From Prolixibacteraceae bacterium (GTDB taxonomy: Bacteria > Bacteroidota > Bacteroidia > Bacteroidales > Prolixibacteraceae), in the NCBI GenBank assembly GCA_018648265.1, contig JABGRN010000014.1, positions 6,436 to 70,435 on the forward strand: DNA of 64,000 nucleotides. The letters run 5' to 3'. The position numbers were made by a program, and so were the translations under genes. Position 1 is the stretch's first letter. Every line of letters begins with the position of its first letter. The notes beneath the pieces are model-generated. The model was not told where the DNA came from. It saw nothing but the letters and a program-made list of their open reading frames with translations, and made no database searches. Shown here piece by piece: positions 35,709 through 64,000 of this stretch.

Positions 35709-36401
35709 TCAGTTTAAAGAATTAAATTTATACCCAACTCCTCTAACGCTAATAATGTATTTTGGGTCTGAAGGATTTTCTTCCAATTTTTTTCTGAGGT
35801 CGAGAATAAAATTATCTACAGTTCGCGTTGTTGGCATGGCTTCAAAACCCCAAACTTCGTTTAATAAATCGTGCCGGTGAACCGCTTTACCATCATGTAA
35901 AATTAAATATTCCATGATATCAAATTCTTTATTGGAGAGTTTAACCTCTCGATTTTGATAAAAAGCCTGAAGATTTTTAAAATCAAGTTTGACCTTACCA
36001 TAGGAAAAGCTGGTTAATGGTCCGGGTTCTTTGTTAATCCTGCGGAAAGCCGCTCTTATTCTGGCTAAAAGTTCGGGAAGGCTAAATGGTTTGGTTATAT
36101 AATCATCGGCACCGATATCCAATCCCGCCACTTTATCCATTTCCGATCCTCGGGCTGTAAGCATAATTACCGGTAAATCAGGTTTATCTTTTTTAATTTT
36201 ACGGCAAATCTCATAACCATTAATTCCGGGCAGCATTATATCTAATAACACCAGGTCAATCTCATTTTTCAAAGCCGTTTTTAATCCTTCTATTCCATTT
36301 GTTGCTGTGATAATGCTGTACTCTTCAAGTATTAAATTTTCTTCAAGCCCCAATAAAATATTAAGGTCGTCTTCAATTACTAAAATGACTTTTTTCTTCA
36401 T
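35709..36401 (-). CDS. OmpR/PhoB-family response regulator (module D, subfamily I)
   Basis: Receiver domain with LLDIMLPGINGYE and a C-terminal winged helix ...TRTVDNFILDLRKKLEENPSDPKYIISVRGVGYKF. Confidence 0.9.
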   Translation of the reverse strand: MKKKVILVIEDDLNILLGLEENLILEEYSIITATNGIEGLKTALKNEIDLVLLDIMLPGINGYEICRKIKKDKPDLPVIMLTARGSEMDKVAGLDIGADDYITKPFSLPELLARIRAAFRRINKEPGPLTSFSYGKVKLDFKNLQAFYQNREVKLSNKEFDIMEYLILHDGKAVHRHDLLNEVWGFEAMPTTRTVDNFILDLRKKLEENPSDPKYIISVRGVGYKFNSLN

Positions 36402-36411
36402 AATTAAGTGA

Positions 36412-38418
36412 TCAAGAATTTAACACGATTGTGAATTTACTGCCTTTATTTAATTCACTTGTAACTTTTAGTTCTCCATTATGGGCTTTAATAATATCCC
36501 CTGCAACTGTTAATCCTAAACCTGTTCCACTGGTTGTTTCATTTTCCTTACTTCTGACCCGATAGAATTTTTCAAAAATCAGCGAAATTTGATTTTTGGG
36601 AATACCAAGTCCTGTATCTTCAATTTCAATACTAATTTTATCCAATTGTTTTTTTAACCTGACAAATAAATTTTTATTAACCGAGGAATATTTTATAGCA
36701 TTTCCTATTAAGTTGGACAAAGCCTGCTTTATCGCTTCCGGGTCAACAAAAGCTTTTATATCTTCTTCAATTTCAATCGACACATTAAATTTATTTATTT
36801 CAAGCCAATATTCCATTTCATTTAGCACCAACTTTAATAATGCTGACAAATCAGTGTCCTGCAATTTGTATTTCGAACTCTCATTTTTCTTTACTGAATA
36901 TTCAAGTATATTATCAATTTTACGTTTTAGGTTTTCACTTTCTTTAATGATAATATTTGAATATTTTTTTCGCGAAGCTTCCGATTTTGCCTTGTCCAGA
37001 TAGATTGATTCAGCAAACATATTGATAGAAGTAAGTGGCGTTTTTAATTCATGCGTTACATTGGCAATAAATTCCGATTGCCGGGCTGCCATCCTTTTTT
37101 CCCTGTTAACATCTCTCAAAATCAAATTAACCCCCATTATCATTCCGCCAATCAGCAATGTAAGTGCAATTCCGTAAATCCAGCTTCTGCGGGTAACATA
37201 TTTTTTTATTATTGATTCGTTTTTTAATTTAAGCTGAATTACATAAGATGGAAAAAACATCGACAACGGTGTTATTGTTTCCAGACCATTAAAAGTGGAA
37301 TTGCTGTTGCTGTTTTCTGTCAGTTCAATCCGATATTCAAATTCCGTATCTCCCCATTTTATATTATTCAAAGTCATTTCCCATAAACTGTCGAGCGGAA
37401 CAGTAAATCCAAAAAGATTTTCGTGTTTGTGATTGATAAACAGGACCATTTCTGGATTCTGAACGAATCCGGGAATGATATAATAATCTCCTAATTTGAG
37501 TATACTTTCCAATTCGTCAACAATGGTGTATTTTCTGATTTGACTTCCGTATTCATTTACAAATGTAAGTTGTATTCTAATTTCCTGAATGAGTTCATTA
37601 ATAGACTGTAAACTTATATCTGAACCTCCCGGTATCCGTTCTGTCCATTTCCCAATCTGGTCAAGAATATTGCCGGTACTGTGATTTAAAAGTATTTCGC
37701 CGGATGCCATTCCTGCAAGACACTTTTCCAACTTTTTTAACAAGCTTTCAGGATTGTTGTTGCCGCTTATTTTAATAAGTTGTGGAATTGCATAATATAC
37801 AAAAGGGAAATTGTATTTGTCTGTTACGGAATAATATTTTGAAATGACAGTGCTATACAGATCAATGGCTTTATCTGTATTTTCCATTTTAACAGAAACC
37901 CTGGCCAGGGCATTGTAACATAAGGCAGAATCGTGTTTACTTACAGCAAATTTTAAAGCAGAGCGATAAGTCTTTTCTGCGTTGTTTAACTTTTGTGTTT
38001 TAAATTCCAATAATTCTGCTCTGTTATACTGAATCCTACATTTCCCGGAATTGTATTTTCCTGATTCTAATGGTAATCCTTCATTAAAAGGAGGCCATAA
38101 AAAATTTCCTTTTCTGTCGATGATAAACCAGTCGTTAATAAAAACGGGCTTTTGTAAAGTTGTAAAACGGTTAACATTAACCGTATCGGTTTCAGTAAGT
38201 TTTGCGAATGTGTCGCTTACTTCTTCAAGTACTTTATGGAAATTCAGGGCAAGATCCGCTGCAAATATTCCTTCTTCCTCCAAAACTTTTTTTTCTGTTA
38301 ATTCCTTTAGGTTCGAAATGTTACTTATGCTCAGATATGCAAGAATACCCGCCGAAATAAATACAGCGAGTATAAATACGATGGTCAATTTTAAAACAGG
38401 TTTTTCTCTGTTCTTCAT
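36412..38418 (-). CDS. Sensor histidine kinase with a large extracytoplasmic TPR-like domain (module D)
   Basis: TM1 near the N-terminus, a ~380-aa loop, and TM2 (SWIYGIALTLLIGGMIMGVNLIL). Catalytic motifs are the H-box VTHELKTPLTSI, N-box NLIGNAIKYS, G1 EDTGLGIP and G2 GTGLGLTV. Confidence 0.9.
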   Translation of the reverse strand: MKNREKPVLKLTIVFILAVFISAGILAYLSISNISNLKELTEKKVLEEEGIFAADLALNFHKVLEEVSDTFAKLTETDTVNVNRFTTLQKPVFINDWFIIDRKGNFLWPPFNEGLPLESGKYNSGKCRIQYNRAELLEFKTQKLNNAEKTYRSALKFAVSKHDSALCYNALARVSVKMENTDKAIDLYSTVISKYYSVTDKYNFPFVYYAIPQLIKISGNNNPESLLKKLEKCLAGMASGEILLNHSTGNILDQIGKWTERIPGGSDISLQSINELIQEIRIQLTFVNEYGSQIRKYTIVDELESILKLGDYYIIPGFVQNPEMVLFINHKHENLFGFTVPLDSLWEMTLNNIKWGDTEFEYRIELTENSNSNSTFNGLETITPLSMFFPSYVIQLKLKNESIIKKYVTRRSWIYGIALTLLIGGMIMGVNLILRDVNREKRMAARQSEFIANVTHELKTPLTSINMFAESIYLDKAKSEASRKKYSNIIIKESENLKRKIDNILEYSVKKNESSKYKLQDTDLSALLKLVLNEMEYWLEINKFNVSIEIEEDIKAFVDPEAIKQALSNLIGNAIKYSSVNKNLFVRLKKQLDKISIEIEDTGLGIPKNQISLIFEKFYRVRSKENETTSGTGLGLTVAGDIIKAHNGELKVTSELNKGSKFTIVLNS

Positions 38419-38433
38419 AAGCTACTAAAATTT

Positions 38434-40653
38434 TTACTCCAAACCTTCCATCATCCAAAGCTGATTTTTCCGTGTTATAATATTATAAACCATATATTTT
38501 CCATCTTTACTCCAACTGGGAAGTGATTCATGAAAATTTGCATTCTTAGAAAAAAGGGATATTTCTTTTGACTTTGTATTATACTTGTATACCGATGATG
38601 TATTCTCGTAGTGTCCCTCGAAATAATAATACTCACCCTTAGGATCCCAGACACCTACATAGTCCCAAACATCTGGCTGATCTATCATTTCTGTAGTTGG
38701 GCTGCCGTCAACATAAGCTTCCCGGATACCATCCTCATCATTTTCAGGATCGTAATACATATAAGCCAGTTTTTTGCTGTCAGGATACCATCCAATACTC
38801 TCTTTATAGTTCCATTCTTCTTTGGGAGTTAATCTTTTCATTTCCCCGTTAAGCGTAGAAACAATAAAAATATCGTTATCTCGACCTTCTTCTTCCAAAA
38901 AAGCAAAACAAGCAATATACTTGCCATCGGGAGACCATCGTAAAGGAACATTTTCTTCCCATTTCCCATTTTCAACTACAGCTAATTTTTCAGCTTTATC
39001 ACTCCAGGCCGGAATAGTATATATGCTATTTCCAAGGGGGAAGGCAACCTTTTTACTGTCGGGCGACCAAGTGAGAAATGAACAATTAGCATTTTTATGA
39101 GTAACTGATTTCTCTAATCTTCCTGTATTTGTAGATAAAAAATAAAGTTCCTGAATTTCTTCCTCTTTTGTGGTAAAAAATGCCATCGTTGATCCATCAG
39201 GCGATAAAGCATAACAAGGCCAATCATGGATACCTTTACCTGGATTCATTTCGGTAAGCCTTTTTTTATCTCCTCCTAATCGATTAGCAGAATAAATACC
39301 ATCGTTGTTATTTCCTGCTTCAACATAATAGACGGTTGCCCCATCCGGCGACAGTATTGCACCATTTCCTGTTGCGATTGTTTTGTTACTATCGAGATTT
39401 TCATTTCCCAGGATTACTATTCGCCGTATTTCTTTCTGAAGGCCGTAAACTAATGTAGAATTATCCTTAATAATAACTGGTGAAAAGACATTAGCATTAT
39501 AATGAAAAGTTATTTGTTCCGCAACTCCAATTTTCTCCCCTGTTTCAGGATCTATTTTTATCTTAAAAATATTCCAATCCCCATTCCGATCTGAAATAAA
39601 ATAAAAAGAATAATCTGTTGCTGACCATGTTCCATACGCATTTCTTCCCATATTTTGCGTAAGCCTGATATTTTTATCTCCGGATGATGAGACTAGCCAG
39701 CAATCGATTTTATACCTGTTGTCCTCATTAGTACAGGAATAATACGAGATCCATTTACCGTCTGGTGAGTGAGATGTCAACCTCGGTACACACCAATCGT
39801 AATTCCAGGCTATTGTATTGGTAGTTTCCCCAGCCAGATTGTACGTTACGAGGCCTTTCTTTGAGTTTAAGGAAACAATATGTTTGCTATCCGGGTGCCA
39901 GCAAGAACCGTAGGATTCACCAGATTCACCAGACTTAAATTTTTCACTTATTTGTTTTAATACACCATTTTCCACATTAATCGCATAAAATGCCCATTCC
40001 CCTGTATCATTTCGCCCAGCAAATGAAATATTTTTCCCATCTGGTGAGAACTTGGGAAACAAAATCGTTTCAAATTGAAGAGAATTTGTCAGAAGGTCAA
40101 CGGGAGCCCCGGAAACATCGGCAATAAAAAGCCCAGGGTGAGAAATTGAATTTTCCATGTTTTTATGAACATCTTTGAAAACAATTTTTTTTCCGTCCGG
40201 TGAAAAATCAAACACATGTTCACCAAACCATGTTGATCCCTCTCTCATTGCCAAAGGTATTTGTGTAATTAAAGGTTTACCAGTGGTCTCTTTTTGAGTT
40301 GTATTTTGAATTCTTAAAACCTGAAGCCTGGTTTTAGCAATCTTCACAGATTGTTGCTGGTCGGCATATTGTTCAATTACTTTATTGTAGGCTTCCGTTG
40401 CCTGTTTTTTGCCCAGCTTTTCGTAACACAGTCCGATTTGGAGTTGAGCATTTGCCCGGAGCGACCTTTCAGCAACTGAGTTCTCAACAATTTTAGTGTA
40501 AATATCAATCGCTTGCTGAAGTGCCCCTTCACCCTCTTCTTTCATTAGCGCCTTTTGAAACAGTTGTTCCTGATTTTGCGAAACAACGGGTTCAATTGCA
40601 CACGTTGCCAGGATAAGCAACAATATCAATGATTTAATAACTTGTGTTTTCAT
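38434..40653 (-). CDS. Secreted TPR + PD40 (TolB-like) beta-propeller protein, 739 aa
   Basis: It has a signal peptide and an N-terminal TPR segment (EQLFQKALMKEEGEGALQQAIDIYTKIVEN...LQIGLCYEKLGK). I count about 11 PD40 blade motifs (FSPDGKKIVF, FSPDGKNISF, HSPDGKWISY, WSPDGKYIAC and others). There is no catalytic domain. Confidence 0.85.
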   Translation of the reverse strand: MKTQVIKSLILLLILATCAIEPVVSQNQEQLFQKALMKEEGEGALQQAIDIYTKIVENSVAERSLRANAQLQIGLCYEKLGKKQATEAYNKVIEQYADQQQSVKIAKTRLQVLRIQNTTQKETTGKPLITQIPLAMREGSTWFGEHVFDFSPDGKKIVFKDVHKNMENSISHPGLFIADVSGAPVDLLTNSLQFETILFPKFSPDGKNISFAGRNDTGEWAFYAINVENGVLKQISEKFKSGESGESYGSCWHPDSKHIVSLNSKKGLVTYNLAGETTNTIAWNYDWCVPRLTSHSPDGKWISYYSCTNEDNRYKIDCWLVSSSGDKNIRLTQNMGRNAYGTWSATDYSFYFISDRNGDWNIFKIKIDPETGEKIGVAEQITFHYNANVFSPVIIKDNSTLVYGLQKEIRRIVILGNENLDSNKTIATGNGAILSPDGATVYYVEAGNNNDGIYSANRLGGDKKRLTEMNPGKGIHDWPCYALSPDGSTMAFFTTKEEEIQELYFLSTNTGRLEKSVTHKNANCSFLTWSPDSKKVAFPLGNSIYTIPAWSDKAEKLAVVENGKWEENVPLRWSPDGKYIACFAFLEEEGRDNDIFIVSTLNGEMKRLTPKEEWNYKESIGWYPDSKKLAYMYYDPENDEDGIREAYVDGSPTTEMIDQPDVWDYVGVWDPKGEYYYFEGHYENTSSVYKYNTKSKEISLFSKNANFHESLPSWSKDGKYMVYNIITRKNQLWMMEGLE

Positions 40654-40686
40654 TTTAGTTTCCTCCTTATAATTAGTTTATAAGTA

Positions 40687-40755
40687 CAAAACTACTTTCA
40701 AATAACAGGCTCAGTGTCACATCTTTGTTTTGTAAATGTAAAATTACGTCACAAA
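40687..40755 (-). promoter_or_regulatory. Class I promoter/operator: -7 box plus 11-bp phased octamers upstream of the 739-aa propeller gene
   Basis: The box is CAAAACTA (40687-40694, reverse complement of TAGTTTTG). Octamers on the plus strand are TGTCACAT at 40715, TGTTTTGT at 40726, TGTAAAAT at 40737 and CGTCACAA at 40747. The offset from box end to first octamer is 21 nt. Confidence 0.5.
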
Positions 40756-40775
40756 ACGGTTAATGTGAAACCCGT

Positions 40776-41456
40776 TTATTTTACAAATTTATACCCAACT
40801 CCTCTAATGCTAATAATATGTTTAGGTTCCGAGGGATTTTCTTCCAGTTTTTTTCTGAGGTCAAGAATAAAATTATCAACTGTGCGTGTAGTGGGCATAG
40901 CTTCAAAACCCCAAACTTCGTTCAATAAATCGTGCCGGTGAACAGCTTCGCCTTCGTGTTTGATAAAATATTCCATTATTGCAAATTCCTTACTCGACAA
41001 TTTAATTTCCTGATTATCACGCGAAGCCTGATATTTTTTGAAATCTAATTTTACTTTTCCAAAAGAATATTGATCCGGAATAGGATTCGTCGGTGTCGTT
41101 CTTCTGAAAACAGCTCTTAGCCGCGCCAAAAGTTCAGGAATGCTGAATGGTTTAGTAACATAATCGTCTGCACCAATATCGAGTCCCGAAACTTTATCCA
41201 TTTCCGAGCCCCGGGCAGTAATCATGATTACGGGTAATTGAGGTTTTTCTTTTTTTACTCTTTTGCAAATTTCATATCCGTTTATTCCCGGCAACATGAT
41301 ATCAAGCAAAAGTAAATCCGGATTTTTCTCAAGAGCGGTTTGCAAACCCTTTTTCCCATTTGTTTCAGAAACAACGGCGTAACCTTCGTATTCCAAGTTA
41401 TCTTTTAATCCACGCAGAATACTAACATCGTCTTCTATAATTAATATTGTCTTCAC
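40776..41456 (-). CDS. OmpR/PhoB-family response regulator (module C, subfamily I)
   Basis: Its GTG start overlaps the kinase stop (GTGA). The C-terminal 53 aa differ at only 3 positions from the RR at 35709-36401. Confidence 0.9.
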   Translation of the reverse strand: MKTILIIEDDVSILRGLKDNLEYEGYAVVSETNGKKGLQTALEKNPDLLLLDIMLPGINGYEICKRVKKEKPQLPVIMITARGSEMDKVSGLDIGADDYVTKPFSIPELLARLRAVFRRTTPTNPIPDQYSFGKVKLDFKKYQASRDNQEIKLSSKEFAIMEYFIKHEGEAVHRHDLLNEVWGFEAMPTTRTVDNFILDLRKKLEENPSEPKHIISIRGVGYKFVK

Positions 41457-43474
41457 ACTTTTTCTGTTTGCCGATTTAAAGTTATAGAAAATTTACTTCC
41501 CCCACCTAATTTACTTTCAACAGATATTTTTCCTTTATGAGCTTCAATAATTTCTTTTACAACTGTTAACCCGAGTCCGGTTCCGCTAATGTTTTCTTTT
41601 TGGTCAACACGATAGAATTTCTCAAATATTTGCGACAATTGATTTTCAGGGATGCCGATTCCCTGGTCTTCAACCTCAATATGAATATTATTTGATGTTT
41701 TAAATAAACGAATAAAAATCTTTTTTGTGATGGTTGAATATTTTAACGCATTGCTAAGTAGATTGCTAATCGCTTGTTTCATTTTTTCAGGGTCAACTTC
41801 GGCAAATATATTTTCATCCATTTCAGCAAGCACCTCAAAGTTCTCTTTCTCAAACCAGTAATCAAACTGGTGAATTGACGCATTGATTATTGACGCCAGA
41901 TTTGAAGAAACAAAATGATATTCAGGTTTGCCCTTTTCCATTTTCGAAAATTCAAGAATATTATTTATCATCCTTTTCAACCTTTCACTCTCTTTTAAAA
42001 TTATTGATAGATATTCATCTTTGTCCGTCTCCTTTTTTACCCGTTTTAACAAAAGAGATTCTGCAAACATATAAATTGATGTGAGGGGTGTTTTTAATTC
42101 ATGAGTAACATTAGAAATAAAATCGGACTGTAACCGGGCTATTTGCTTTTCTCTTGCAATATCTCTGACAATTAAAGCAACTCCGAGAGACAACGCAACC
42201 AAAAGTAATGCGGTAGCAATCCCATAAATCCAACTTCTGCGTTTTATAAAATCGTTGATTAGGTTTTCATCGTTCAATTTGATTTGCATCATTTGCCCCG
42301 GAAAATAAGGATTCATTTGCGCAGTATAAATCAGGCTTTTTTCATTTGCATTTGAGGGATATCCTGGTAAAAATTCAATTTTATAATCAAATTCAAAAAC
42401 AGATTGAAGACCTTGATTTAAGACAGAATCAAATAGTTTTATACCATCTATTAAAAAGCCTACCGGATTCTCTAAATTTGTGTTGACCAGGAGCAATTTC
42501 TGACTGTTTCCTGAATATGAATTAATAACTCTAAAATCATTGTTGACATTTAAATAATTGTCCGGACTCTCTTTTTTCATTAACTCCAACATTGAATTTT
42601 TATATTCATCGATAAATTGAAGCTGTTTGTTAATTTTCTGTTCCAGTTTATTTACGTGAGCTAATTTTTCTGTGCTAATAAAACTGTTTTCCTGTGTCCA
42701 TTTTATAACGAGTGCTAATAATTCTTTTGTACCAAAATTCAGCGGAATAAAACCCGTTTCCATTTTTTCGAGACAGAATTCAAACAGTACCAATATTTCG
42801 TCACAGTTATCAGAATTTGAAATTTTTACAAGCTGTGGAATAGCATAATAAACATACAAAAGACCGTCAGATCCCGAAATATTAAAATAGTCCAAAACAA
42901 TATGTTTGTAATATCCGATTGCAATTTCCGGCTCTTTTAATTTTACAGAAACCCGGCCCAGTGCATTTAAAGCTTTAACCGAATCGTTTGCATTTTTTGA
43001 AAAACTCAGGCACGACAAATAATGTTTTTTAGCCGTTTTTAGATTATTACGAGCAAATTCATTTTCTTCACCATTTTTGAAAGCAGAAATATAACGACTT
43101 GAAAATTTAGGTAGAGTCATATTTTCAGATAATCCCATAAAATTTGGATAAAGAAAAGAGCCATTATTTTTTAAAATAAATGGCAGCGTAATAAAATTAT
43201 TTTCGGATGTTGTTTTTATGAGCGAATCTTTTAGTAAACCGGGCGGACTGATTTCATTTTTGAAACCACCGGTTACGGTTTCTATTTTATTTTGCATTAC
43301 AAGCGAAAACTTTGCAGCTAGTTCCCGTTGCTCCTCAGTAACTCTTCTTTCAGTCAGTTCTTTCAGGTTCGAAATACTGTTAATACTAAACCAGGTTAAT
43401 ATACTTCCCGAAATTACAACGGCAAGAATGAAAATAATTGTAAGTCGCGAAGCTGGTTTTAATTTTTGGTTCAT
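41453..43474 (-). CDS. Sensor histidine kinase with extracytoplasmic TPR-like domain (module C)
   Basis: Same architecture as 36412-38418. The H-box is VTHELKTPLTSI. The track start at 43477 is TTG; the ATG is at 43474. Confidence 0.9.
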   Translation of the reverse strand: MNQKLKPASRLTIIFILAVVISGSILTWFSINSISNLKELTERRVTEEQRELAAKFSLVMQNKIETVTGGFKNEISPPGLLKDSLIKTTSENNFITLPFILKNNGSFLYPNFMGLSENMTLPKFSSRYISAFKNGEENEFARNNLKTAKKHYLSCLSFSKNANDSVKALNALGRVSVKLKEPEIAIGYYKHIVLDYFNISGSDGLLYVYYAIPQLVKISNSDNCDEILVLFEFCLEKMETGFIPLNFGTKELLALVIKWTQENSFISTEKLAHVNKLEQKINKQLQFIDEYKNSMLELMKKESPDNYLNVNNDFRVINSYSGNSQKLLLVNTNLENPVGFLIDGIKLFDSVLNQGLQSVFEFDYKIEFLPGYPSNANEKSLIYTAQMNPYFPGQMMQIKLNDENLINDFIKRRSWIYGIATALLLVALSLGVALIVRDIAREKQIARLQSDFISNVTHELKTPLTSIYMFAESLLLKRVKKETDKDEYLSIILKESERLKRMINNILEFSKMEKGKPEYHFVSSNLASIINASIHQFDYWFEKENFEVLAEMDENIFAEVDPEKMKQAISNLLSNALKYSTITKKIFIRLFKTSNNIHIEVEDQGIGIPENQLSQIFEKFYRVDQKENISGTGLGLTVVKEIIEAHKGKISVESKLGGGSKFSITLNRQTEKV

Positions 43475-43595
43475 CAAGTGTTTTATGTATTCTTCATCTT
43501 TACGATTACATTTGCATCGTGTTTTTTATTACTGGCAAAGGGGAACCCGATTTTCTCGAATACCCCTTTCCATCGATTATTATTTTCGATTCCCT

Positions 43596-47872: not shown

Positions 47873-47910
47873 ATAAAAAAACAGCCGGAAATTTTTGCTT
47901 CCGGCTGTCT
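47873..47910 (-). terminator. Terminator hairpin T1 after the beta-helix gene
   Basis: acagccggaa atttttgc ttccggctgt is a perfect 10-bp stem at 47881-47908. On the minus strand it is followed by TTTTTT. Confidence 0.7.
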
Positions 47911-54381: not shown

Positions 54382-54449
54382 CAAAGTTAAATCACCGAAA
54401 ATTCATATCAGACAAGTCATAAATGAGTTGTGTCAAGTTAAAATCAAGT
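54382..54449 (-). promoter_or_regulatory. Class II promoter/operator upstream of the 1329-aa propeller gene
   Basis: The box is CAAAGTTA (54382-54389). Octamers are AGACAAGT at 54410, TGTCAAGT at 54431 and AATCAAGT at 54442, with spacings of 21 and 11 nt. The offset is 21 nt. Confidence 0.5.
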
Positions 54450-54450
54450 T

Positions 54451-55140
54451 TTAAGAAGATAAAAATTTATACCCTCTTCCCCGCACGCTAATAATCCATT
54501 TAGCTTGTGCAGGATTATCTTCAATTTTTTTTCTCAAATTTAAAATATGTGTATCTACGGTTCTTGGCGCTACAAAAACCTCTTTTCCCCATACTTCATC
54601 CATTATCCGGTCGCGGCTTACTACCACCCCTTTGTGATTGATTAGGAATTTTAACAGATCAAATTCAAGGGTGGTTAACTGAATAATTTCTCCGGCTTTT
54701 AAACATTCATATTTTTGAAAATCAACGGTTATATCCCCAAATAAGAATTGACTTTCAGACGATATTTCAGGTTTTTCATTCACACGTCGTAAAACAGCTT
54801 TTACCCGCGCCTGCAATTCTCTTGGGCTAAATGGTTTTGTAATGTAATCATCGGCACCAAATTCCAATCCCAGGATTTTATCTATCTCCTGGCTTTTAGC
54901 AGTGAGCATAATGATGGGAGTTCGCACATTTCTTTTACGAAGTTCCTTTAACACTTCAAAACCATCCATTTCTGGAAGCATTATATCCAGCAAAATAATA
55001 TCATAAATTGGCTCCAATCCTTTTTTAAGTCCAGCTGTTCCTGTATTTGCAGAATCAACTTCATATCCTTCTGCGAGGAAGTCATCTTCCAACGCCATCC
55101 GAATTGCTTTTTCGTCTTCTATAATTAATATTCTTGTCAT
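54451..55140 (-). CDS. OmpR/PhoB-family response regulator (module B, subfamily II)
   Basis: Receiver domain ILLDIMLPEMDGFE and winged helix PRTVDTHILNLRKKIEDNPAQAKWIISVRGRGYKF. Confidence 0.9.
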   Translation of the reverse strand: MTRILIIEDEKAIRMALEDDFLAEGYEVDSANTGTAGLKKGLEPIYDIILLDIMLPEMDGFEVLKELRKRNVRTPIIMLTAKSQEIDKILGLEFGADDYITKPFSPRELQARVKAVLRRVNEKPEISSESQFLFGDITVDFQKYECLKAGEIIQLTTLEFDLLKFLINHKGVVVSRDRIMDEVWGKEVFVAPRTVDTHILNLRKKIEDNPAQAKWIISVRGRGYKFLSS

Positions 55141-57434: not shown

Positions 57435-57501
57435 AAAGTTCTCAATTATAAATTACATACGTATCAAGAAACAGAATTGTTTTGTCAAGACTTTGTCAAG
57501 T
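57435..57501 (-). promoter_or_regulatory. Class II operator repeats upstream of the module B kinase
   Basis: Octamers are TATCAAGA at 57462, TGTCAAGA at 57483 and TGTCAAGT at 57494, with spacings of 21 and 11 nt. AAAGTT at 57435-57440 sits 27 nt before the first octamer, exactly as at 54383. The -7 box is degenerate here. Confidence 0.45.
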
Positions 57502-57524: not shown

Positions 57525-57556
57525 AAAAAACAGCGGGAAACTTTTGCTCCCGGCTG
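57525..57556 (-). terminator. Terminator hairpin T3 after the 700-aa propeller gene
   Basis: cagcgggaaacttttgctcccggctg at 57531-57556, followed on the minus strand by TTTTTT. Confidence 0.6.
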
Positions 57557-57620: not shown

Positions 57621-59723
57621 TTATTTCTTTGGCAGGAAATCGCTGATCATATAAAATTCTGGTCTACCTCCAATAATGTTTTTAAAAGCTATTTTTTTGC
57701 CATCCGGCGACCAGCTGAATCTACCTTGTCTGGATTCCTTCGGGAGGCCAGTGGGTAGCAATTTTGGTTTTCCTTCGCTAAGTGTGGTTATCCAGATGTT
57801 ACGAGGGCCTACTTTATGTGCAATTTTTGATCCGTCAGGAGAAAAAGCCAAATGACTCCACCTATCGAATCTAATATCTGCAACCAGTACTTTAGATTGA
57901 CCGCCTTCAACCGGTATTGTTTTTATTGCACTACCTGAGAAGAAAGCGATGTTTTTACCGTCGGGAGAGAAGGTGATGGCACTACGTCCTATGCTATCAG
58001 ATTTTGAGGTGATTTGCCTTATTTTACCACCTTCTGATGGAATAATATATATTGCGCGGAAGTCATTAATGTCATTTTTACCTTCATAAAATGCGACCCA
58101 CTTTCCATCAGGTGACCAGCGCGGATAATAACTTTCGAAGGGTCTGTCACTGGTTAGTTGAACAGGTATTCCACTTTCCAGTATTATGGTAAATAAATTA
58201 CTTTTGTTAGCTTTATTTTCTATCATCCCGGTACCGGTGCTGATAAGGATCTTTTTTCCATCGGGAGAAATATTATGGGCGCCCCCTGGTATGGTTGACA
58301 TAAGATCTTCACTGGTCTGTACCGGAACTTTTATTGCTTTACCGCCATTTGATGGAACAAAAAGTATTTCTGATCCTACTTCTTTATTATATCCTCTGAA
58401 GTAGATACGTTTCCCATCGGGTGACCACGCTGGATAATTAGGACCAAGTCCATCAGGTGATACCTGCATTGCCTTTCCTCCGGTTGAGGGCACAGTATAA
58501 ATCGCTGATCGCCGTTCCGATTGAAGGAAAATTCCAAGTTCATTTTCTGCTGTCCATCCTGCCAGCATATTAGGACTCTCACTGGGAAGCTTAATCTTTG
58601 TAGGATCTTCTGTGGTGGATTTGTCTGGTGAAAACGGGTAAATTATTATTTCTTTATCTAAAAGAGTAGCGATGTATTTGCTATCAGGTGACCAAATGGG
58701 ACCACTCAATCCTTCGTTAACGTTTGAAAGTTTTACCGGTTTGCCATTTTTAGCAGAAACAACCCATAGATCACAAATTGTTTCATCATTGTCCGGGTCA
58801 TTGTTTTTCATGCTATAACCAATATATGCTATAAATTGATCGTCGGGAGAATAGGAAGGCTTATTGCTCATTCCGGATATTAATTGTTTAGGTTTACCAC
58901 CTAATGTAGGAATTGTATAAATACTACGATCTAAGGGAAAAGATTCTGTCTTTCCTAATTCAAGAGCCGAGAAAGTCAGCATATCACCATCATGTGATAA
59001 GCTAAGTCTACGGTTAAAGGCATAATCACCACGAGGTATCATTTCTACCAGTCGGGGTTTAGCTCCGTCCACAGGAATGATATACACAATCTCATTTTCA
59101 ACACCACTTTCCTCAGTATCTATTGCATTAACCGCTATCCACTTCCCGTCGGCTGACCATGACATCAAAGTGCCATTATCCCAACCTCCCGGTATTTTTG
59201 CAAGTTGAATTGGTTCACCGGCAATGTCGGGATTAACTTTTCCATGGAGAGGAATGATCCACACGGAACCATCGGAGAACGTGGCCAATCTGTTCCCATC
59301 AGGTGATAAAACCCCGTTTTGAGGATTACTGGCAATCTTGATTTTCGTGAATTTTGGCTTAATGGAAGTTTTAGAAACTTTTTCGGCAACCCGTAATCTG
59401 GAAATCCTTTCCCTGGCAAGTTCAGCTATTTTTTTCTGGTCTTCGTATTTATTAATTATCTGCTCATAATAAGCCTGGGCTTTTTTTGTTCCAAGCCTTT
59501 CACTTGAGAGCCCCAGATGAAAAAGTGCCGTTGCGGTAATTTCTCTTTGATCAGGATAATTTTTGACAATATCCTCATAAATGAGTATAGCTTCTTCAAG
59601 GTTACCTTTCACTTCTTCCAGATAAATGGCATTACTAAGTAACTCATCAGGGTTTTTTTCCTGTCCGGAAGTTATACCAGACACCAACAGACTGCATAAT
59701 AGAAAAACAAAAATTCGTTTCAT
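57621..59723 (-). CDS. Secreted TPR + PD40 beta-propeller protein, 700 aa
   Basis: Signal peptide and the TPR segment DELLSNAIYLEEVKGNLEEAILIYEDIVKNYPD. PD40 motifs include LSPDGNRLAT, WSADGKWIAV, YSPDDQFIAY, WSPDSKYIAT, WSPDGKRIYF and WSPDGKWVAF. The C-terminus is EFYMISDFLPKK. Confidence 0.85.
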   Translation of the reverse strand: MKRIFVFLLCSLLVSGITSGQEKNPDELLSNAIYLEEVKGNLEEAILIYEDIVKNYPDQREITATALFHLGLSSERLGTKKAQAYYEQIINKYEDQKKIAELARERISRLRVAEKVSKTSIKPKFTKIKIASNPQNGVLSPDGNRLATFSDGSVWIIPLHGKVNPDIAGEPIQLAKIPGGWDNGTLMSWSADGKWIAVNAIDTEESGVENEIVYIIPVDGAKPRLVEMIPRGDYAFNRRLSLSHDGDMLTFSALELGKTESFPLDRSIYTIPTLGGKPKQLISGMSNKPSYSPDDQFIAYIGYSMKNNDPDNDETICDLWVVSAKNGKPVKLSNVNEGLSGPIWSPDSKYIATLLDKEIIIYPFSPDKSTTEDPTKIKLPSESPNMLAGWTAENELGIFLQSERRSAIYTVPSTGGKAMQVSPDGLGPNYPAWSPDGKRIYFRGYNKEVGSEILFVPSNGGKAIKVPVQTSEDLMSTIPGGAHNISPDGKKILISTGTGMIENKANKSNLFTIILESGIPVQLTSDRPFESYYPRWSPDGKWVAFYEGKNDINDFRAIYIIPSEGGKIRQITSKSDSIGRSAITFSPDGKNIAFFSGSAIKTIPVEGGQSKVLVADIRFDRWSHLAFSPDGSKIAHKVGPRNIWITTLSEGKPKLLPTGLPKESRQGRFSWSPDGKKIAFKNIIGGRPEFYMISDFLPKK

Positions 59724-59735: not shown

Positions 59736-59792
59736 CAAAATTAACCTTCCCTTTTAACACCTATATGTTGGAATTGTGAACTTGTGTTAAAC
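59736..59792 (-). promoter_or_regulatory. Class III promoter/operator upstream of the 700-aa propeller gene
   Basis: The box is CAAAATTA (59736-59743). Octamers are TATGTTGG at 59764, TGTGAACT at 59775 and TGTTAAAC at 59785. The offset is 21 nt. Confidence 0.4.
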
Positions 59793-59816: not shown

Positions 59817-60506
59817 TTAAATACAAGTAAATTTATAGCCTATACCTCTAAACCCTATTATCCATCTTGGATTTGAAGGATCATCTTCTATTTTTTTTCT
59901 TAATTTGGCAATATGGGTATCCACAGTCCGCGGAGAAACTAAAATATCTTCACCCCATACCTTGTCCAATATTTCATTCCTGCTTATTACCTGTTCCCTT
60001 TTTTTTATCAAATAATGTAGTAATGAGAATTCCAGTGTTGTCAGGATTATGTTTTTTTCTTTTTTCTTACAGGAAAATTTCTTGAAATTAATTTCGAGAT
60101 CGCCAATTTTAAATTGAATTTCAACTGTCCCATTTTTTTCACTGTTTCTTCGTCGAAGAACGGCTTTAACCCTGGCATGAAGTTCCCTGGAACTATACGG
60201 TTTTGTAATATAATCATCAGCTCCAAACTCCAATCCGAGAACCTTGTCAATTTCCTGGCTCTTAGCTGTTAACATGATAATTGGTGTTTCAATTCCTTTT
60301 TTTCTTAGTTCTTTACAAATTTCAAAACCATCAATCCCCGGTAACATAACATCCAGCAGAATAATATCTATATCAGGATCAAAAGCCTTTTCCAGTCCTT
60401 CATTTCCTTCAACTGCTGATTCAACCAGGTAACCTTCAAAGGTAAAATCATCAACTATTGCTTTTCTGATGGAAATATCATCTTCAACAACTAATAATTT
60501 TCTCAT
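59817..60506 (-). CDS. OmpR/PhoB-family response regulator (module A, subfamily II)
   Basis: It has an ATGA overlap with the kinase stop. Motifs are ILLDVMLPGIDGFE and PRTVDTHIAKLRKKIEDDPSNPRWIIGFRGIGYKF. Confidence 0.9.
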   Translation of the reverse strand: MRKLLVVEDDISIRKAIVDDFTFEGYLVESAVEGNEGLEKAFDPDIDIILLDVMLPGIDGFEICKELRKKGIETPIIMLTAKSQEIDKVLGLEFGADDYITKPYSSRELHARVKAVLRRRNSEKNGTVEIQFKIGDLEINFKKFSCKKKEKNIILTTLEFSLLHYLIKKREQVISRNEILDKVWGEDILVSPRTVDTHIAKLRKKIEDDPSNPRWIIGFRGIGYKFTCI

Positions 60507-62626
60507 GTTATACTTTTTTGGAATATGGGTAATTTGATAATAAAAGTGCTGCCTTTACTAATTTGGCTTTCATGTGAAATAGTTCCACCATGATAATTTA
60601 CAATTTGTTTCACAATAGTTAAACCAATTCCACTTCCCTTAACAAGGTGGATCCGATCATCACTAACCCGGTAAAACCGATTGTATATTTTATCATTGTC
60701 TTCTGCTGGAATTCCGATTCCAAAATCTTTAATTGAAATAAAAACCGATTTTTTGTCCGATTTTGTTTGAACCTCGATCAAATCTGATTTTCCGGAATAT
60801 TTATACGCGTTATCCAAAAGATTATGGATTACCTGGGAGATAGCTTCTTTGTCGGCATGTATAAGCGGTAAAATATTGGCTTGCTCATAAGTTAGCTTAA
60901 ATTCCTTATCGGGTATCGATTTTTTGAACGATTCAATAATTTCCTTCAGAATTAAATCCATATTAACAGGTTCAAATCTGAATTTCTTTTGCCCTTCCTC
61001 TAATTTTGAAAAATCGAGTATATTTTCAATCAAATGGCTTAACCTTTCACTTTGTTGCTGAATGATCTCGTAGTACTCCTGCTTTTTCGATTCCGTGAGA
61101 ACCCTTTTAAAAACCAGCATGTCGGTTATATGCCTTATGGATGTCAACGGGCTTTTGAATTCATGTGAAACCGTTGAAATAAAATCAGACTTCATTTTTG
61201 ACAACTGAAGTTCTTTGCTAACAATTTGAATTGTAAAAAATAAACCAAGGGCTAAAACCAGAACTATAAAAATGAATATAAACAAAAAGATACTATGCCC
61301 CGAAAGGAACAAAGTATTTATTAAACCGGATGGTTCAGAATATAATTTAAGCGTCCAGACCGGCATTTCACCTGGCGATTCTATTATTACCGGTTCCACT
61401 TCGAAATTGATACTTAATGATTCTGCCACCGTCTTTCCACTTTCGTCAACCAATTGCCATTGAAAATTTTCATTTTCAGAATGTTCTTTTATTAATGGAA
61501 GGAGTACCTTATTAATAAATTCTTTACAGTTATATATTATGCCCCAGTATCGGTTTTTTGTTCCGCTAAAGAGTGAAAAATAATATGAATTATTATCTGT
61601 TACAGTATATCTTATGTAAGGTAATTGTCCTTCAATACTCCGGTATATGAGAGAATCATTAATTATAAGTGAATAATCTTCCACAAATTCAAGAAGATAT
61701 TCTGAAGTTTTTTCCCTGATTTTTATTTTTTCATAAAGAGTATCTACCCTGGCCGATAAGTCTATTAGGGTTTTATTATTTGTCTGTTTAATCTGACTGT
61801 TTATGTTTTGAATAGAAGATAGCAGGTTATTATAACCGGAAGGATCTATTTGCCATTCAGTATTTAATATTCTGTTTAAAAATTTAATGGTATTATTCAA
61901 AGATAAAATCGTATCTCCGGCTAACTTATTAAGATCAATTTTTTCAAGTTGAGCCATAATACCCAAATGGATCCGTTTATCGATTATTATTTCTCCGTAC
62001 TCAGATTCGATAAGCCGGTAAGTTTCTATGGCCTTATTGTGCTCTGACAATTTAGTTTGTACCCGGGCAATTTGTATCAGTATATAAGCTTTTGTTTCCT
62101 TATTCTTAAATTCCCTGAATCTGTTTTTATAATAATTAAGAGCTTTTTGAAGATTTTTTTCCTGGTATTCATATTTCCATCCTTGCGTAAACATATTTAC
62201 ATATTTATATGGAGACTGAACTTCCTCTTTTTCTTCATAAATTTTAGGAATATATAAAAGAGAGGGATGAAAAATTCGAATTGAACCAGAAGGTTGAATT
62301 AAAAAAAAGCTTCTGAGCAGGTTGTTTTTATTCGCGAAAGATTTTAATGTATCTTCTTCAAAAGTCAGATAGGAAGGGAAGGAAGGCACTAAATCCGGGA
62401 TTTTCCCCTTGAATTTATTATTAATTATTGTAATAGCTGAATTGGTTTGAGAAATAAGAACTGCACCTGTTTCAGTCAGTTGTTTTCTCTGCTCCCTTTC
62501 GATTAGTGCATGGTCATTTTTTATGCCTCTGAAAGCAAGTATTCCGAGCAAACAACATGGTATAACAATAACCAAAACATAATATAGAATGATCTTTTTT
62601 TTACTAAAATATCTTTTGGTACTCAT
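60503..62626 (-). CDS. Sensor histidine kinase with extracytoplasmic TPR-like domain (module A)
   Basis: A paralogue of 55292-57406. It has the H-box VSHEFKSPLTSI and the motifs NLLDNAYKYS, KDFGIGI and GSGIGLTI. Confidence 0.9.
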   Translation of the reverse strand: MSTKRYFSKKKIILYYVLVIVIPCCLLGILAFRGIKNDHALIEREQRKQLTETGAVLISQTNSAITIINNKFKGKIPDLVPSFPSYLTFEEDTLKSFANKNNLLRSFFLIQPSGSIRIFHPSLLYIPKIYEEKEEVQSPYKYVNMFTQGWKYEYQEKNLQKALNYYKNRFREFKNKETKAYILIQIARVQTKLSEHNKAIETYRLIESEYGEIIIDKRIHLGIMAQLEKIDLNKLAGDTILSLNNTIKFLNRILNTEWQIDPSGYNNLLSSIQNINSQIKQTNNKTLIDLSARVDTLYEKIKIREKTSEYLLEFVEDYSLIINDSLIYRSIEGQLPYIRYTVTDNNSYYFSLFSGTKNRYWGIIYNCKEFINKVLLPLIKEHSENENFQWQLVDESGKTVAESLSINFEVEPVIIESPGEMPVWTLKLYSEPSGLINTLFLSGHSIFLFIFIFIVLVLALGLFFTIQIVSKELQLSKMKSDFISTVSHEFKSPLTSIRHITDMLVFKRVLTESKKQEYYEIIQQQSERLSHLIENILDFSKLEEGQKKFRFEPVNMDLILKEIIESFKKSIPDKEFKLTYEQANILPLIHADKEAISQVIHNLLDNAYKYSGKSDLIEVQTKSDKKSVFISIKDFGIGIPAEDNDKIYNRFYRVSDDRIHLVKGSGIGLTIVKQIVNYHGGTISHESQISKGSTFIIKLPIFQKSIT

Positions 62627-62690
62627 CTGATTGTCATCTCATAAACTACTTAATATAAAGAGTTTAATATAACTATTTTTCTCCACATTT

Positions 62691-62730
62691 TGTTAAGGAA
62701 TAAATTAGTTTTGTGAAATTTTTGTGAAGT
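62691..62730 (-). promoter_or_regulatory. Class III operator repeats upstream of the module A kinase
   Basis: Octamers are TGTTAAGG at 62691, TGTGAAAT at 62712 and TGTGAAGT at 62723, with spacings of 21 and 11 nt. I found no clear -7 box. Confidence 0.4.
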
Positions 62731-62837
62731 GACAAAATATAAGCAAAACCTAAGGAACCTATCTATAAGAAGAACAATTTCTTTCAGTGAAGCAAAAGCA
62801 ACAACCTGAGGCTATCGACTCACAACTATTTTATCAC

Positions 62838-62869
62838 CAAAAACAGCCGGAAACTTTTGCTCCCGGCTG
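62838..62869 (-). terminator. Terminator hairpin T4 downstream of the partial propeller gene
   Basis: cagccggaaacttttgctcccggctg at 62844-62869, followed on the minus strand by TTTTT. Confidence 0.6.
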
Positions 62870-63052
62870 CCTATTTTGAAGATTAAAACATCTGATTCTT
62901 TATTCATTCACTGTTTATGATTATTATTTATTTCTTCCAAAATAGTGGTTTTTATTTGCAGTTAAAATGAATTTCAAACTCATCATTGAAATTATGTAAA
63001 AGTGAGAAGGTTTATAAAGGTTTGTCATAATTACGAGATAAAAAATTAGCAT

Positions 63053-64000
63053 CTAAAAATCAAATTCAAGTGTCCATAAATTAGTGGAACGAATTCTTTT
63101 GCTAAATACAAGGGTTTTTCCATCGGGCGATAATCTGACATCTCTAATATAATGATTCGCATCTGATAGCTTTTTACCGAAAGGCTTTTTTTGCAGCGTG
63201 TTTATATCGATGGTATAGAATTGTTTGCTTACACCACTGGATTTATCCATGTCATTGGTTGTTATGGATAATAATAAAATTTTTCCATCCTGAAAGAAAT
63301 TAAGCCCACCGTACCATGAAAACGATTCTTCTTCAGCAACTTCCCATAATAACTTAGCCTCAGTACTATTTAACTGCATGCTGAATAATTCCTGTTGTAA
63401 TGCATCTCCCACTTCTCCTTCAAAAAATGCCAGTGTGGTTTTATCTTCAGAGATTGCAAGATGATAAATTTGCTTATTAGTTTTATAAACTGTTTTTTCT
63501 TTGCCAGTGCTTATAGTCTGTTGAATGATTTTATTGCCAAGCGGGTCAACATAGAGAATTGTGTTTTCAGGGCCAAATACTTTCCACGAATGACCTTTTA
63601 GAATTTTTTTGTCTCCAGATTCAATGTTTACAATAACAAGTTTTTCGTTACCTCCGTATTGCAAAAGAATGCTTTCCCCATTTGCAGACCATTGAGGCCA
63701 TTCCCATCCTCCAGGTCGTTCAAGTATATTCAGCTCAAGCTTGAGATTTTTTTCATTTCCTGTTTTATAGTCATGAATAATTATATCGTCACCATAATGG
63801 TAATTGTCATCTATTCTTCTGGAGATATAAGCTATTTTGTTACCATCGGGAGACCAGAAAGGCGTTGTAAATATCCCGGGCTTGTTATCTGTTAAAGAAG
63901 TAGGATTTTCAAAAATTTCCTCGTCTGGTTTTACCGTGTCATGAAAAATATTTGAATAGGTGGATGTGGATAAAAACACAAATTTGCCTTCATTTGTAAA
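63053..64000 (-). CDS. PD40 beta-propeller protein; N-terminus lies beyond the window
   Basis: The track ORF starts at a GTG at 63979, but the frame stays open to nt 64000 (..FTNEGKFVFLSTST..). PD40 motifs are WSPDGNKIAY, WSANGESILL and LSPDGKTLVF. The C-terminus is NLWTLEFDF. Confidence 0.8.
   Translation of the reverse strand, partial: FTNEGKFVFLSTSTYSNIFHDTVKPDEEIFENPTSLTDNKPGIFTTPFWSPDGNKIAYISRRIDDNYHYGDDIIIHDYKTGNEKNLKLELNILERPGGWEWPQWSANGESILLQYGGNEKLVIVNIESGDKKILKGHSWKVFGPENTILYVDPLGNKIIQQTISTGKEKTVYKTNKQIYHLAISEDKTTLAFFEGEVGDALQQELFSMQLNSTEAKLLWEVAEEESFSWYGGLNFFQDGKILLLSITTNDMDKSSGVSKQFYTIDINTLQKKPFGKKLSDANHYIRDVRLSPDGKTLVFSKRIRSTNLWTLEFDF

Follow-up and report, generated by a model that had tools for sequence, protein, structure and literature searches.

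A 64,000-nucleotide stretch of contig JABGRN010000014.1 from a Prolixibacteraceae bacterium, a Bacteroidota genome from sediment, was analyzed over its whole length and is referred to here as the window. Its segment 35709-64000 consists of 14 consecutive open reading frames (ORFs), all on the minus strand, and the ORF listing agrees exactly with the coordinates given in an original prediction made from the sequence letters. Within the window, this array encodes four histidine kinases (HK), four OmpR-type response regulators (RR), five exported proteins (PP) that join tetratricopeptide repeats (TPR) to PD40-type propellers, and a single beta-helix protein (BH) with a type IX secretion system (T9SS) sorting domain. 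Judged from its gene neighborhoods, the HK-RR-PP combination is a conserved cassette that is widespread in several phyla. The best overall explanation, to which we give about even chances, is that the array represents five self-contained three-gene signaling cassettes together with one extra target gene, and that each PP would be both an output and a co-sensor of its own two-component system. Each cassette would consist of a membrane HK with a periplasmic domain of ~400 aa (a TPR-like helical unit plus an alpha/beta part), an OmpR-type RR, and a PP that would be exported through signal peptidase I and built from an N-terminal domain of ~95 aa with two TPRs, followed by a linker helix and either one or two double propellers that are non-catalytic.

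PP5 is truncated by the window edge at nt 64000, and the original prediction had anticipated that the array probably runs past this point. Locus L001, a copy of this contig that extends beyond nt 64000, indeed contains a fifth HK-RR-PP unit there, in which HK5 (686 aa) and RR5 (229 aa) precede the complete 699-aa PP5; the array starts with HK5 directly after a tRNA_edit gene, which bounds it beyond the fifth unit. The full array measures ~33 kb and comprises the five cassettes (modules 1 to 5) plus the beta-helix gene, in the transcription order HK5-RR5-PP5, HK4-RR4-PP4, HK3-RR3-PP3, BH, PP2-HK2-RR2, PP1-HK1-RR1. Modules 3, 4, and 5 are thus arranged as HK-RR-PP, with PP under its own promoter, and modules 1 and 2 as PP-HK-RR. 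The earlier tally of four three-gene sets, a "further" 1289-aa propeller protein, a gene cut by the window edge, and the beta-helix gene adds up to 15 genes rather than 14; all five PPs, the 1289-aa protein and the cut gene included, have one of five HK/RR pairs as their partner. Similarly, the two subfamilies described at first have become three: A (modules 1 and 2), B (modules 3 and 4), and C (module 5), a division seen in the sensor, the kinase core, the RR, and the TPR domain of PP. Pfam hidden Markov models (HMMs) run on the array proteins bore out the predicted domain calls, and domain scans agree that the array lacks a SusC/SusD pair. Proteins identical to those of the window were also found in the Prolixibacteraceae metagenome-assembled genome (MAG) GCA_018694395.1.

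The adjacency of kinase, regulator, and TPR-PD40 protein, which had been posed as a question, proved to be conserved outside this genome regardless of the gene from which the search was started. For the PP-anchored test, one genome per species was scanned with the PP TPR domain alone (a 5-sequence alignment), which yielded 38 loci that were annotated with HMMs built from the window proteins. Among the 46 PP genes with >=300 bp of upstream DNA, 42 have an OmpR-type RR directly upstream on the same strand, and in those 42 the RR is itself preceded by a kinase matching the sensor HMM, with an RR-PP gap of mostly 80-110 nt. The four exceptions are two PPs located behind another PP, one PP-HK-RR unit, and one fragment. 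For the kinase-anchored test, a metagenome scan with the sensor domain alone returned 26 loci, and all of those with enough downstream DNA (10/10) read HK-RR-PP. Kinases found via the HK3 sensor domain in Draconibacterium and other MAGs always have RR and PP behind them, and PP4-like proteins of ~710 aa in MAGs labeled Gemmatimonadota and Planctomycetes belong to the same triad. The cassette can occur singly among unrelated genes (L007) or as three or more tandem copies (L004, L005), and no other conserved neighbor besides HK, RR, and PP was present in the loci examined. Record titles of the 38 loci include Prolixibacteraceae genera, Rikenellaceae, Aminicenantes, Calditrichia/Caldithrix, Syntrophaceae, and some Eubacteriales-labeled MAGs, with the qualification that many loci are MAGs of uncertain taxonomy and that long-read assemblies contain frameshifts. 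We consider the Eubacteriales label doubtful, as the spacers of these MAGs hardly differ from those of Aminicenantes. A profile of the TPR domain matched 6100 representative clusters at 50% identity (E<=1e-10), and in all of the best 150 matches the domain is N-terminal, in proteins of ~700-725 or ~1263-1405 aa. Matches of <175 aa to the 100-aa TPR profile were considered as a stand-alone TPR protein, a candidate that was rejected once their contexts were checked, as they are mostly fragments or frameshifted genes of long-read MAGs.

The predicted regulatory DNA of the array would tie each PP gene to its own module. Bacteroidota -7 boxes, whose consensus is TAnnTTTG, were located by pattern search, and exact matches lie 12-34 nt before the ATG of PP1, PP2, PP3, and PP4 and 240 nt before that of BH; the arrangement recurs in the orthologous spacers, which are almost identical across genera. 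(A sigma-70 promoter scan of the window was uninformative, with 82 sites vs. 73 expected.) Upstream of the -7 boxes, T(T/G)ACA-type boxes are repeated every 11 bp. Operators of the OmpR/PhoB family are tandem direct repeats about one helical turn apart. In the RR-to-PP spacers (n=46), 4-mer self-matches at lag 11 numbered 105 vs. 20 expected (z=15), lags 21/22 were also enriched and lags 10 and 12 were not, and the kinase upstream regions (n=30) had 110 such matches at lag 11 (z=12), compared with z=-0.1 for control 160-nt pieces of kinase coding sequence (n=30); related spacers are not independent samples, and the relevant control for these values is the lag-specific contrast within the same sequences. 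The type of box is specific to the module. CTTGA-N6-CTTGACA has two matches in 64 kb, vs. 0.02 expected, and these are in the HK3 and PP3 promoters only, TTCACAA/TTAACA boxes are common to the HK4 and PP4 promoters, and a 21-nt operator type, TGACACAAyTnTTACAyAACT, is found within the window at the BH and PP2 promoters only. At both promoters of the Aminicenantes-type cassettes, the logic is the same but the boxes are of a distinct variant (CTTGACA / CTTCACA / CTTAAC). Tandem 11-bp boxes of a module-specific type at both the HK and PP promoters argue that PP is very probably a direct target of the adjacent RR, together with autoregulation of the kinase operon. PP had been predicted to be a regulon output, and the -7 boxes, together with 11-bp boxes matching those of the cognate kinase promoter, favor exactly this role.

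In subfamily A, the PP1 gene comes first and the gaps within PP1-HK1-RR1 are 15 and 10 nt. Because HK2 has no boxes of its own upstream and HK1 starts 15 nt past PP1, the PP promoter probably drives PP2-HK2-RR2 and PP1-HK1-RR1 each as an operon, and we infer from the shared 21-nt operator that the A-type regulator would activate BH as well. A near-identical hairpin, CAGCCGGnAGCAAAAnTTTCCnGCTG, followed by a T run, is present in four copies in 64 kb vs. 0 expected, and these copies are located only behind PP5, PP4, PP3, and BH. We therefore describe the first step of the proposed mechanism, with high confidence, as follows: phosphorylated RR would bind the 11-bp-spaced boxes before its own kinase operon (autoregulation) and before the PP gene, in subfamily A such boxes would also serve the T9SS beta-helix gene, and each unit would end at the conserved terminator. 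A separate observation concerns translation initiation. PP1, PP2, and PP5, as well as many PP genes of types A, C, and D, have a Shine-Dalgarno-like AGGAGG/GGAGG motif 6-9 nt ahead of the start codon (window 40654-40670 and 47466-47482; L001 4560-4571), in place of which PP3 and PP4 of type B have A-rich leaders. Motifs of such strength are unusual in Bacteroidota, and they may point to a lateral origin of some cassette types.

By their domains and motifs, the HKs and RRs form ordinary two-component systems of the OmpR/PhoB type. Each of the four kinases in the window passes the Pfam gathering thresholds for HisKA (52-69 bits) and HATPase_c (89-105 bits) and retains the His of the H-box motif H-E-[LF]-K-[TS]-P, and the Pfam scan found no HAMP domain in any of them. 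The four regulators match Response_reg (96-109 bits) and Trans_reg_C (86-93 bits) and keep both the ED(D/E) acidic pocket and the phospho-accepting Asp52-54, in line with their predicted OmpR/PhoB type. No kinase, regulator, or PP reaches a curated NCBIfam cutoff, and the regulators miss the PhoB, OmpR, RprY, CpxR, and other equivalogs. In a hydropathy scan, two hydrophobic helices of each kinase flank 384-415 extracytoplasmic residues, close to the ~380-400 aa between two transmembrane (TM) helices predicted earlier. In the AlphaFold2 (AF2) model of HK3, TM1 extends into a long helix (9-78), which is followed by a small alpha/beta element (88-120), seven helices (147-278), a long helix (285-323), and a beta-rich part (336-429), and TM2 leads straight into the helix of dimerization and histidine phosphotransfer. 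The sensor had been described as TPR-like, and the helices at 147-278, a weak TPR_12 match, and matches of the PP N-terminal profile to the same region all agree with that description. The top fold match of HK3 is a WalK-YycH integrative model, but the match comes from the kinase core. As a side observation, HK2/RR2 and HK4/RR4 overlap by 4 nt, whereas HK3 and RR3 are separated by a G+C-rich spacer of 151 nt (55141-55291, minus strand). It holds a CCCCCTT-GGTG-AAGGGGG hairpin, although the predicted RNA fold of the spacer is no better than that of shuffled sequences (z=-1.4), and its motif GGACAGTCCCCCTT was found only in copies of the same genome. HK-RR intervals of 120-350 nt are also present in several other loci.

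The five PPs each have a signal peptide, a weak N-terminal TPR_6 match, many PD40/propeller-family matches, and nothing else in Pfam, which confirms the build first read from the letters; Pfam and NCBIfam scans detected no catalytic domain in any PP. The mature proteins all start at or near Gln, as is typical of signal peptidase I processing in Bacteroidota, and a Gln at +1 fits this route and not a lipobox. In its AF2 model, PP4 begins with a signal helix, followed by four helices that form two TPR-like hairpins, a long linker helix, and then beta structure up to residue 700. An earlier count of ~11-24 blades per protein can be recast on this basis: the single double propeller of PP4 comprises 12 SPDG-type motifs, and PP2 (1289 aa) and PP3 (1329 aa) contain two such units. 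The best matches of PP4 in a fold search of the PDB are generic tandem double propellers only, including tricorn protease (1k32), and gave no functional lead. Variants of the basic design were also seen. Some PPs of 821-862 aa have a second TPR unit behind the first (L004 13403-15868 and 18930-21518; L041 7905-10388; L058 2450-4930), and this second unit is their best match to the kinase-sensor HMM. At L012 7941-12199, a PP4 orthologue (701 aa) is followed 60 nt downstream by a propeller-only ORF (697 aa), which could reflect either the recent acquisition of another double-propeller unit or, in a long-read MAG, a frameshift; the HK3 orthologue of this locus is ~80% identical in its sensor domain.

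Comparisons among the modules separate the TPR domain of PP from its propeller body. RR1 and RR2 are 71-72% identical and RR3 and RR4 59%, identity among sensors is 33-34% inside a subfamily and ~15% across subfamilies, and the PP TPR domains are 49-51% identical within a subfamily (PP1/PP2 49%, PP3/PP4 51%) and 30-39% between. The propeller body of PP1, on the other hand, is ~20% identical to all other PP bodies, and PP3 is chimeric, its N-half resembling PP4 (35% identity) and its C-half resembling propeller unit 1 of PP2 (36%). A comparable exchange is found in one PP of L005, where an A-type TPR domain is joined to a B-type, PP3-like propeller (46% identity). The orthologue of module 3 in Maribellus (L015) is 65% identical in the sensor, 86% in RR, 90% in the TPR domain, and 86% in the propeller, and the remaining matches outside the array include L014 and L017 for module 4 and L005 for module 5. 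Distance-matrix correlations (mirror-tree) over 26 complete triads gave r = 0.93 for sensor and RR, 0.64 for sensor and TPR, and 0.65 for RR and TPR, vs. 0.115 for sensor and propeller and 0.29 for TPR and propeller, the latter two values being lowered by noise in the repetitive propeller alignments. On these identities and correlations, the TPR domain co-diverges with the kinase and regulator and the propeller bodies do not, being swapped between modules. The claims that HK, RR, and PP all split alike and that whole modules were duplicated therefore hold for the kinase, the regulator, and the TPR segment of PP, but not for the shuffled propeller bodies; likewise, tree congruence, assessed here by distance correlation, extends to the TPR domain with the sensor and RR and fails for the propeller with the sensor. 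We are highly confident in a corresponding step of the model, in which tandem duplication and the swapping of propeller units would have diversified the cassettes, presumably towards different cues. The mirror-tree was also tried as proof of kinase-TPR contact, and this use was rejected, as the TPR domain correlates equally with RR and linkage suffices.

A clue to the role of the propeller comes from outside the two-component context. P0259 (968 aa) has a BlaR1-type Peptidase_M56 domain at residues 15-339 followed by a double propeller that is 51% identical to PP4 117-699, i.e., PP4 minus its signal peptide and TPR domain, and the gene upstream encodes a Penicillinase_R (BlaI/MecI) repressor (129.6 bits; locus L052 1-3383). 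The motif (E/D)(D/N)FLP ends PP2 unit 1, PP3, PP4, and P0259. The C-terminal extracytoplasmic domain of BlaR1-type proteins is their sensor, and therefore the PP4-like propeller of P0259 sits in a covalently attached sensor position. This fusion is a second signaling architecture on the same propeller, and the TPR domain is what distinguishes the two-component version from it. A second clue is a resemblance between the two proposed partners. The PP TPR profile matches the kinase sensors at a consistent site (residues ~135-225), with 12 of the 26 sensors scoring above the best of 546 shuffled/reversed decoys and up to 23.8 bits, the sensor HMM reciprocally matches PP TPR units, and hhalign aligns PP TPR 7-77 with HK3 144-214 (E=1.4e-3). 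Together, these comparisons provide modest evidence that the kinase sensor contains a two-TPR unit related to the PP N-terminus.

We propose that PP would be the ligand-binding half of a split receptor, in which the interchangeable double propeller would bind the cue and the TPR domain would dock PP onto the periplasmic domain of the kinase with its related TPR unit, and the RR-induced PP gene would then close a feedback loop of either sign. We put the chances of such a TPR-docked periplasmic co-sensor at somewhat less than even. It is favored because of the BlaR1 fusion, the retention and co-divergence of the TPR domain, the lack of an enzymatic domain, and the lack of any other conserved neighbor, and we infer that the fusion and the kinase TPR unit make a co-sensor acting through TPR-TPR contact more plausible. 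Several observations weigh against it. Among the window kinases, only HK4 scores above the decoys with the PP TPR profile, the hhalign probability for PP TPR and HK3 is only 17%, and the full-length fold search with HK3 is dominated by kinase-core matches and leaves the fold of the sensor domain unclassified. Furthermore, the kinase might perceive the cue with nothing more than its own large periplasmic domain, location behind a regulator-controlled promoter is classically a mark of effector genes and not of sensors, and the similar correlations of the TPR domain with RR and with the sensor may stem from physical linkage to the RR gene, with recombination breakpoints after the TPR segment, so that kinase-TPR contact is not required to account for them.

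The main rival to the co-sensor model is a pure-output account, in which the kinase would sense the cue alone via its own 400-aa domain and PP would only be an effector, without feedback; it could be a periplasmic binder, scaffold, quality-control factor, or sequestration factor for peptides or glycans. The equal co-divergence of the TPR domain with RR and sensor, which linkage can explain, is the strongest argument for a pure output, and the promoter of PP with its regulator-type boxes, its terminator, and its position as the sole conserved neighbor are what would be expected for a dedicated product. Even so, we consider this account rather unlikely, given that a 51%-identical propeller appears to provide a BlaR1-type transducer with its sensor domain, that PPs in a two-component context invariably retain the TPR domain, which the M56 fusion lacks, that the propellers have no enzymatic domain suggesting an effector activity, and that free swapping of propeller bodies fits variable recognition modules.

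A version with negative feedback, as in CpxP or ExoR, is closest to the original prediction with its CpxP/CpxA analogy. Here, RR-induced PP would bind the sensor and shut the kinase off until the cue titrates or destroys PP, so that the difference from the co-sensor model is in the sign of the feedback only. The same wiring and the TPR units in both partners speak for it. Still, it seems improbable to us: nothing in the sequence points to the sign of the feedback, a ligand-type double propeller of 570-1200 aa is more than a simple inhibitor would need, the BlaR1 fusion points to a ligand sensor that activates, and PP is not homologous to CpxP or ExoR. The analogy to CpxP/CpxA accordingly stands in its logic only, since Pfam and NCBIfam give TPR and propeller families only, and CpxP/Spy (LTXXQ) homology is absent from all PPs in these scans.

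Finally, PPs might be generic envelope proteins and chance neighbors of two-component genes. Like TolB and CpoB/YbgF, they are periplasmic proteins with a PD40-type propeller and TPR_6-type repeats, their NCBIfam similarity to TolB and to the YbgF/CpoB TPR is weak, JGI names them 'Tol biopolymer transport system component', and like Tricorn they match Tricorn_N and Tricorn_2nd, with 1k32 among the fold matches. This idea has next to no probability and is effectively excluded by the conserved linkage across phyla (42/46 and 10/10) and the module-specific operators common to the kinase and PP promoters, in addition to TolB/YbgF scores far below the cutoffs (for the TolB equivalog TIGR02800, 87-207 vs. 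343 bits, with only the propeller part matching and no TolB N-domain), the absence of a tolQ-tolR-tolA-tolB-pal-cpoB context among array neighbors that are kinases, regulators, sulfatases, and housekeeping genes, and the absence of PDZ and Peptidase_S41 from every PP in Pfam scans, unlike the Tricorn protease; a true Tricorn-like protein with PDZ and S41 is present in L009.

Two-component systems with an operon-encoded extracytoplasmic accessory protein include CpxP-CpxA, ExoR-ExoS/ChvI, YycH/YycI-WalK, TorT-TorS, and LuxP-LuxQ. CpxP belongs to the Cpx regulon, in which its induction is the strongest of all targets, the periplasmic ExoR is a TPR-like (Sel1) protein that inhibits ExoS by acting on its sensor, and TorT and LuxP are ligand-binding partners of their sensor kinases. 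The array resembles these systems in that a membrane kinase and regulator are encoded beside a secreted protein, but PP is not homologous to any of the accessory proteins, is far larger at 700-1330 aa, and combines a TPR adapter with swappable double propellers, and the cassette is amplified in tandem. With BlaR1/MecR1-BlaI/MecI, the likeness is that in P0259 and P0269, relatives of PP4, the same double propeller (51%) forms the C-terminal extracytoplasmic part of an M56 transducer. The window contains no M56 or BlaI genes, and PP is exported as a separate protein, has a TPR domain, and is paired with a histidine kinase. Another comparison is with the Bacteroides hybrid two-component systems (HTCS; e.g., BT4663), in which two periplasmic Reg_prop propellers form the ligand sensor and many paralogues have differing specificities. 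Both are Bacteroidota signaling systems with paired propellers that were amplified into paralogues; however, an HTCS is a single polypeptide of Reg_prop/YYY, HisKA, REC, and AraC HTH domains encoded in polysaccharide utilization loci with SusC/SusD, whereas here PD40/Tricorn-type propellers are on a separate protein, the regulator is of the OmpR type, and there is no SusC/SusD, Reg_prop/YYY, or AraC HTH. In Bacteroidota, PorE (PG1058) also combines TPR with a beta-propeller (PMC5053529). The PorE-type CRD and OmpA_C domains (Pfam) and a lipobox (N-termini) are absent from the PPs. No description of the cassette was found in the full-text literature searched, which is not proof of absence as most subscription journals are outside its coverage, and databases name the PPs 'tetratricopeptide repeat protein', 'PD40 domain-containing protein', or 'Tol biopolymer transport system component'.

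More tentatively, we suggest that the cassettes belong to a widespread and hitherto unrecognized class of modular split receptors, in which a small TPR adapter, related to a TPR unit in the periplasmic part of the kinase, would plug interchangeable double propellers onto the cognate kinase and the propellers would be reused by BlaR1-type transducers. The regulator-driven PP gene would then make each receptor self-amplifying, duplication and swapping would yield receptor arrays for different cues, and such arrays would be an OmpR-type counterpart to the Bacteroidota HTCS and extracytoplasmic function (ECF) sensor expansions. At least 6100 TPR-marked clusters (50% identity) exist, and almost every case examined is tied to a particular kinase/regulator pair. 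If the split receptor is true, it would represent a new accessory-sensor architecture for two-component signaling and would explain a large block of uncharacterized periplasmic propeller proteins, and it would be tractable in cultivable Prolixibacteraceae (Draconibacterium, Mariniphaga, Maribellus), with predicted operators and promoters at hand. If only the wiring is true, the array would still illustrate cleanly how operators and regulators co-diversify module by module once a cassette has been duplicated in tandem.

Table 1. Genes, predicted promoter elements, and terminator hairpins of the array (window coordinates).
Feature	Coordinates	Strand	Description
RR1	35709..36401	-	subfamily A; Response_reg 102 bits, Trans_reg_C 88 bits
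HK1	36412..38418	-	subfamily A; HisKA, HATPase_c; weak TPR_12 at 128-190; TM 13-31, 416-434; H-box His456
PP1	38434..40653	-	739 aa, TPR + double propeller; PD40 86.9 bits, TPR_6; signal peptide
PP1 promoter region	40654..40775	-	T(T/G)ACA-type boxes; -7 box TAGTTTTG at 40687-40694
RR2	40776..41456	-	subfamily A; Pfam
HK2	41453..43477	-	subfamily A; 4-nt overlap with RR2
PP2	43596..47465	-	1289 aa; A-type TPR domain + two double-propeller units; PD40 122 bits
PP2 promoter	47500..47565	-	operator TGACACAATTTTTACATAACT 47545-47565; -7 box TAATTTTG 47500-47507
Terminator hairpin, copy 1 of 4	47882..47907	-	after BH
BH	47942..49981	-	NosD/beta-helix + PKD + T9SS sorting domain
BH promoter	50222..50287	-	operator TGACACAACTTTTACACAACT 50267-50287; -7 box 50222-50229
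Terminator hairpin, copy 2	50315..50340	-	after PP3
PP3	50376..54365	-	1329 aa; B-type TPR + PP4-like double propeller + PP2-like double propeller
PP3 promoter	54382..54448	-	CTTGA-N6-CTTGACA 54431-54448; -7 box TAACTTTG 54382-54389; conserved in orthologous spacers
RR3	54451..55140	-	subfamily B; Pfam
HK3	55292..57406	-	subfamily B; TM 12-30, 445-463; AF2 pLDDT 77.9
HK3 promoter operator	57483..57500	-	CTTGACAAAGTCTTGACA, box type as at PP3 promoter; conserved in orthologues
Terminator hairpin, copy 3	57531..57556	-	after PP4
PP4	57621..59723	-	700 aa; TPR helices 25-92, linker helix 97-116, double propeller 124-700; AF2 pLDDT 87.6
PP4 promoter	59736..59790	-	TTAACAC/TTCACAA boxes; -7 box TAATTTTG 59736-59743
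RR4	59817..60506	-	subfamily B; Pfam
HK4	60503..62626	-	subfamily B; Pfam, hydropathy
HK4 promoter boxes	62690..62728	-	TTCACAAAAATTTCACAA ... TTAACAA
Terminator hairpin, copy 4	62844..62869	-	after PP5
PP5	63053..64000	-	subfamily C; C-terminal 315 aa in window; full gene 699 aa

The beta-helix protein of the array has a signal peptide, a NosD/beta-helix region, a PKD domain, and a type A T9SS sorting domain. The last of these exceeds the TIGR04183 cutoff (25 vs. 23 bits), in agreement with the earlier call of one T9SS-sorted beta-helix protein, and is just below that of Pfam Por_Secre_tail (24.6 vs. 27 bits). BH was considered as a conserved member of the cassette and rejected, as zero homologues were present in any other locus examined. 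Its promoter and operator lie ~240 nt before the start codon, and the intervening sequence (49982-50221) implies a long 5' leader. In a Gemmatimonadota-labeled MAG (L050 8513-10399 and 10758-14124), a NosD/beta-helix protein without detectable relationship to BH stands behind a PP, and a protein with BTAD, Ser/Thr kinase, and PD40 propeller parts lies opposite. This Ser/Thr kinase-propeller fusion was tried as support for a sensor role and rejected as weak, its propeller being 25-27% identical to PP.

The genes flanking the array are unrelated to it and encode sulfatases, a peroxiredoxin-like protein, RecN, CoaBC, BamD, an NRPS-like protein, and a transhydrogenase. An Rfam search of the array itself gave no match at threshold. 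Sulfatase genes are located on both sides (window 1549-3150, minus strand; 32782-34086 and 34199-35590, plus strand; L001 1-264), and they also adjoin the M56-propeller fusion (L052) and occur in L009, which may be coincidence in sulfatase-rich genomes. Sulfatase and glycoside-hydrolase genes often lie near the cassettes but are common in these genomes, and their proximity is no evidence for a particular cue; no other result bears on the envelope or extracellular polymer cue proposed at first. The NRPS-like gene (17437-21771, plus strand), also unrelated to the array, encodes a single-module nonribosomal peptide synthetase-like protein of 1444 aa with Formyl_trans_N, AMP-binding, PP-binding, and Thioesterase domains.

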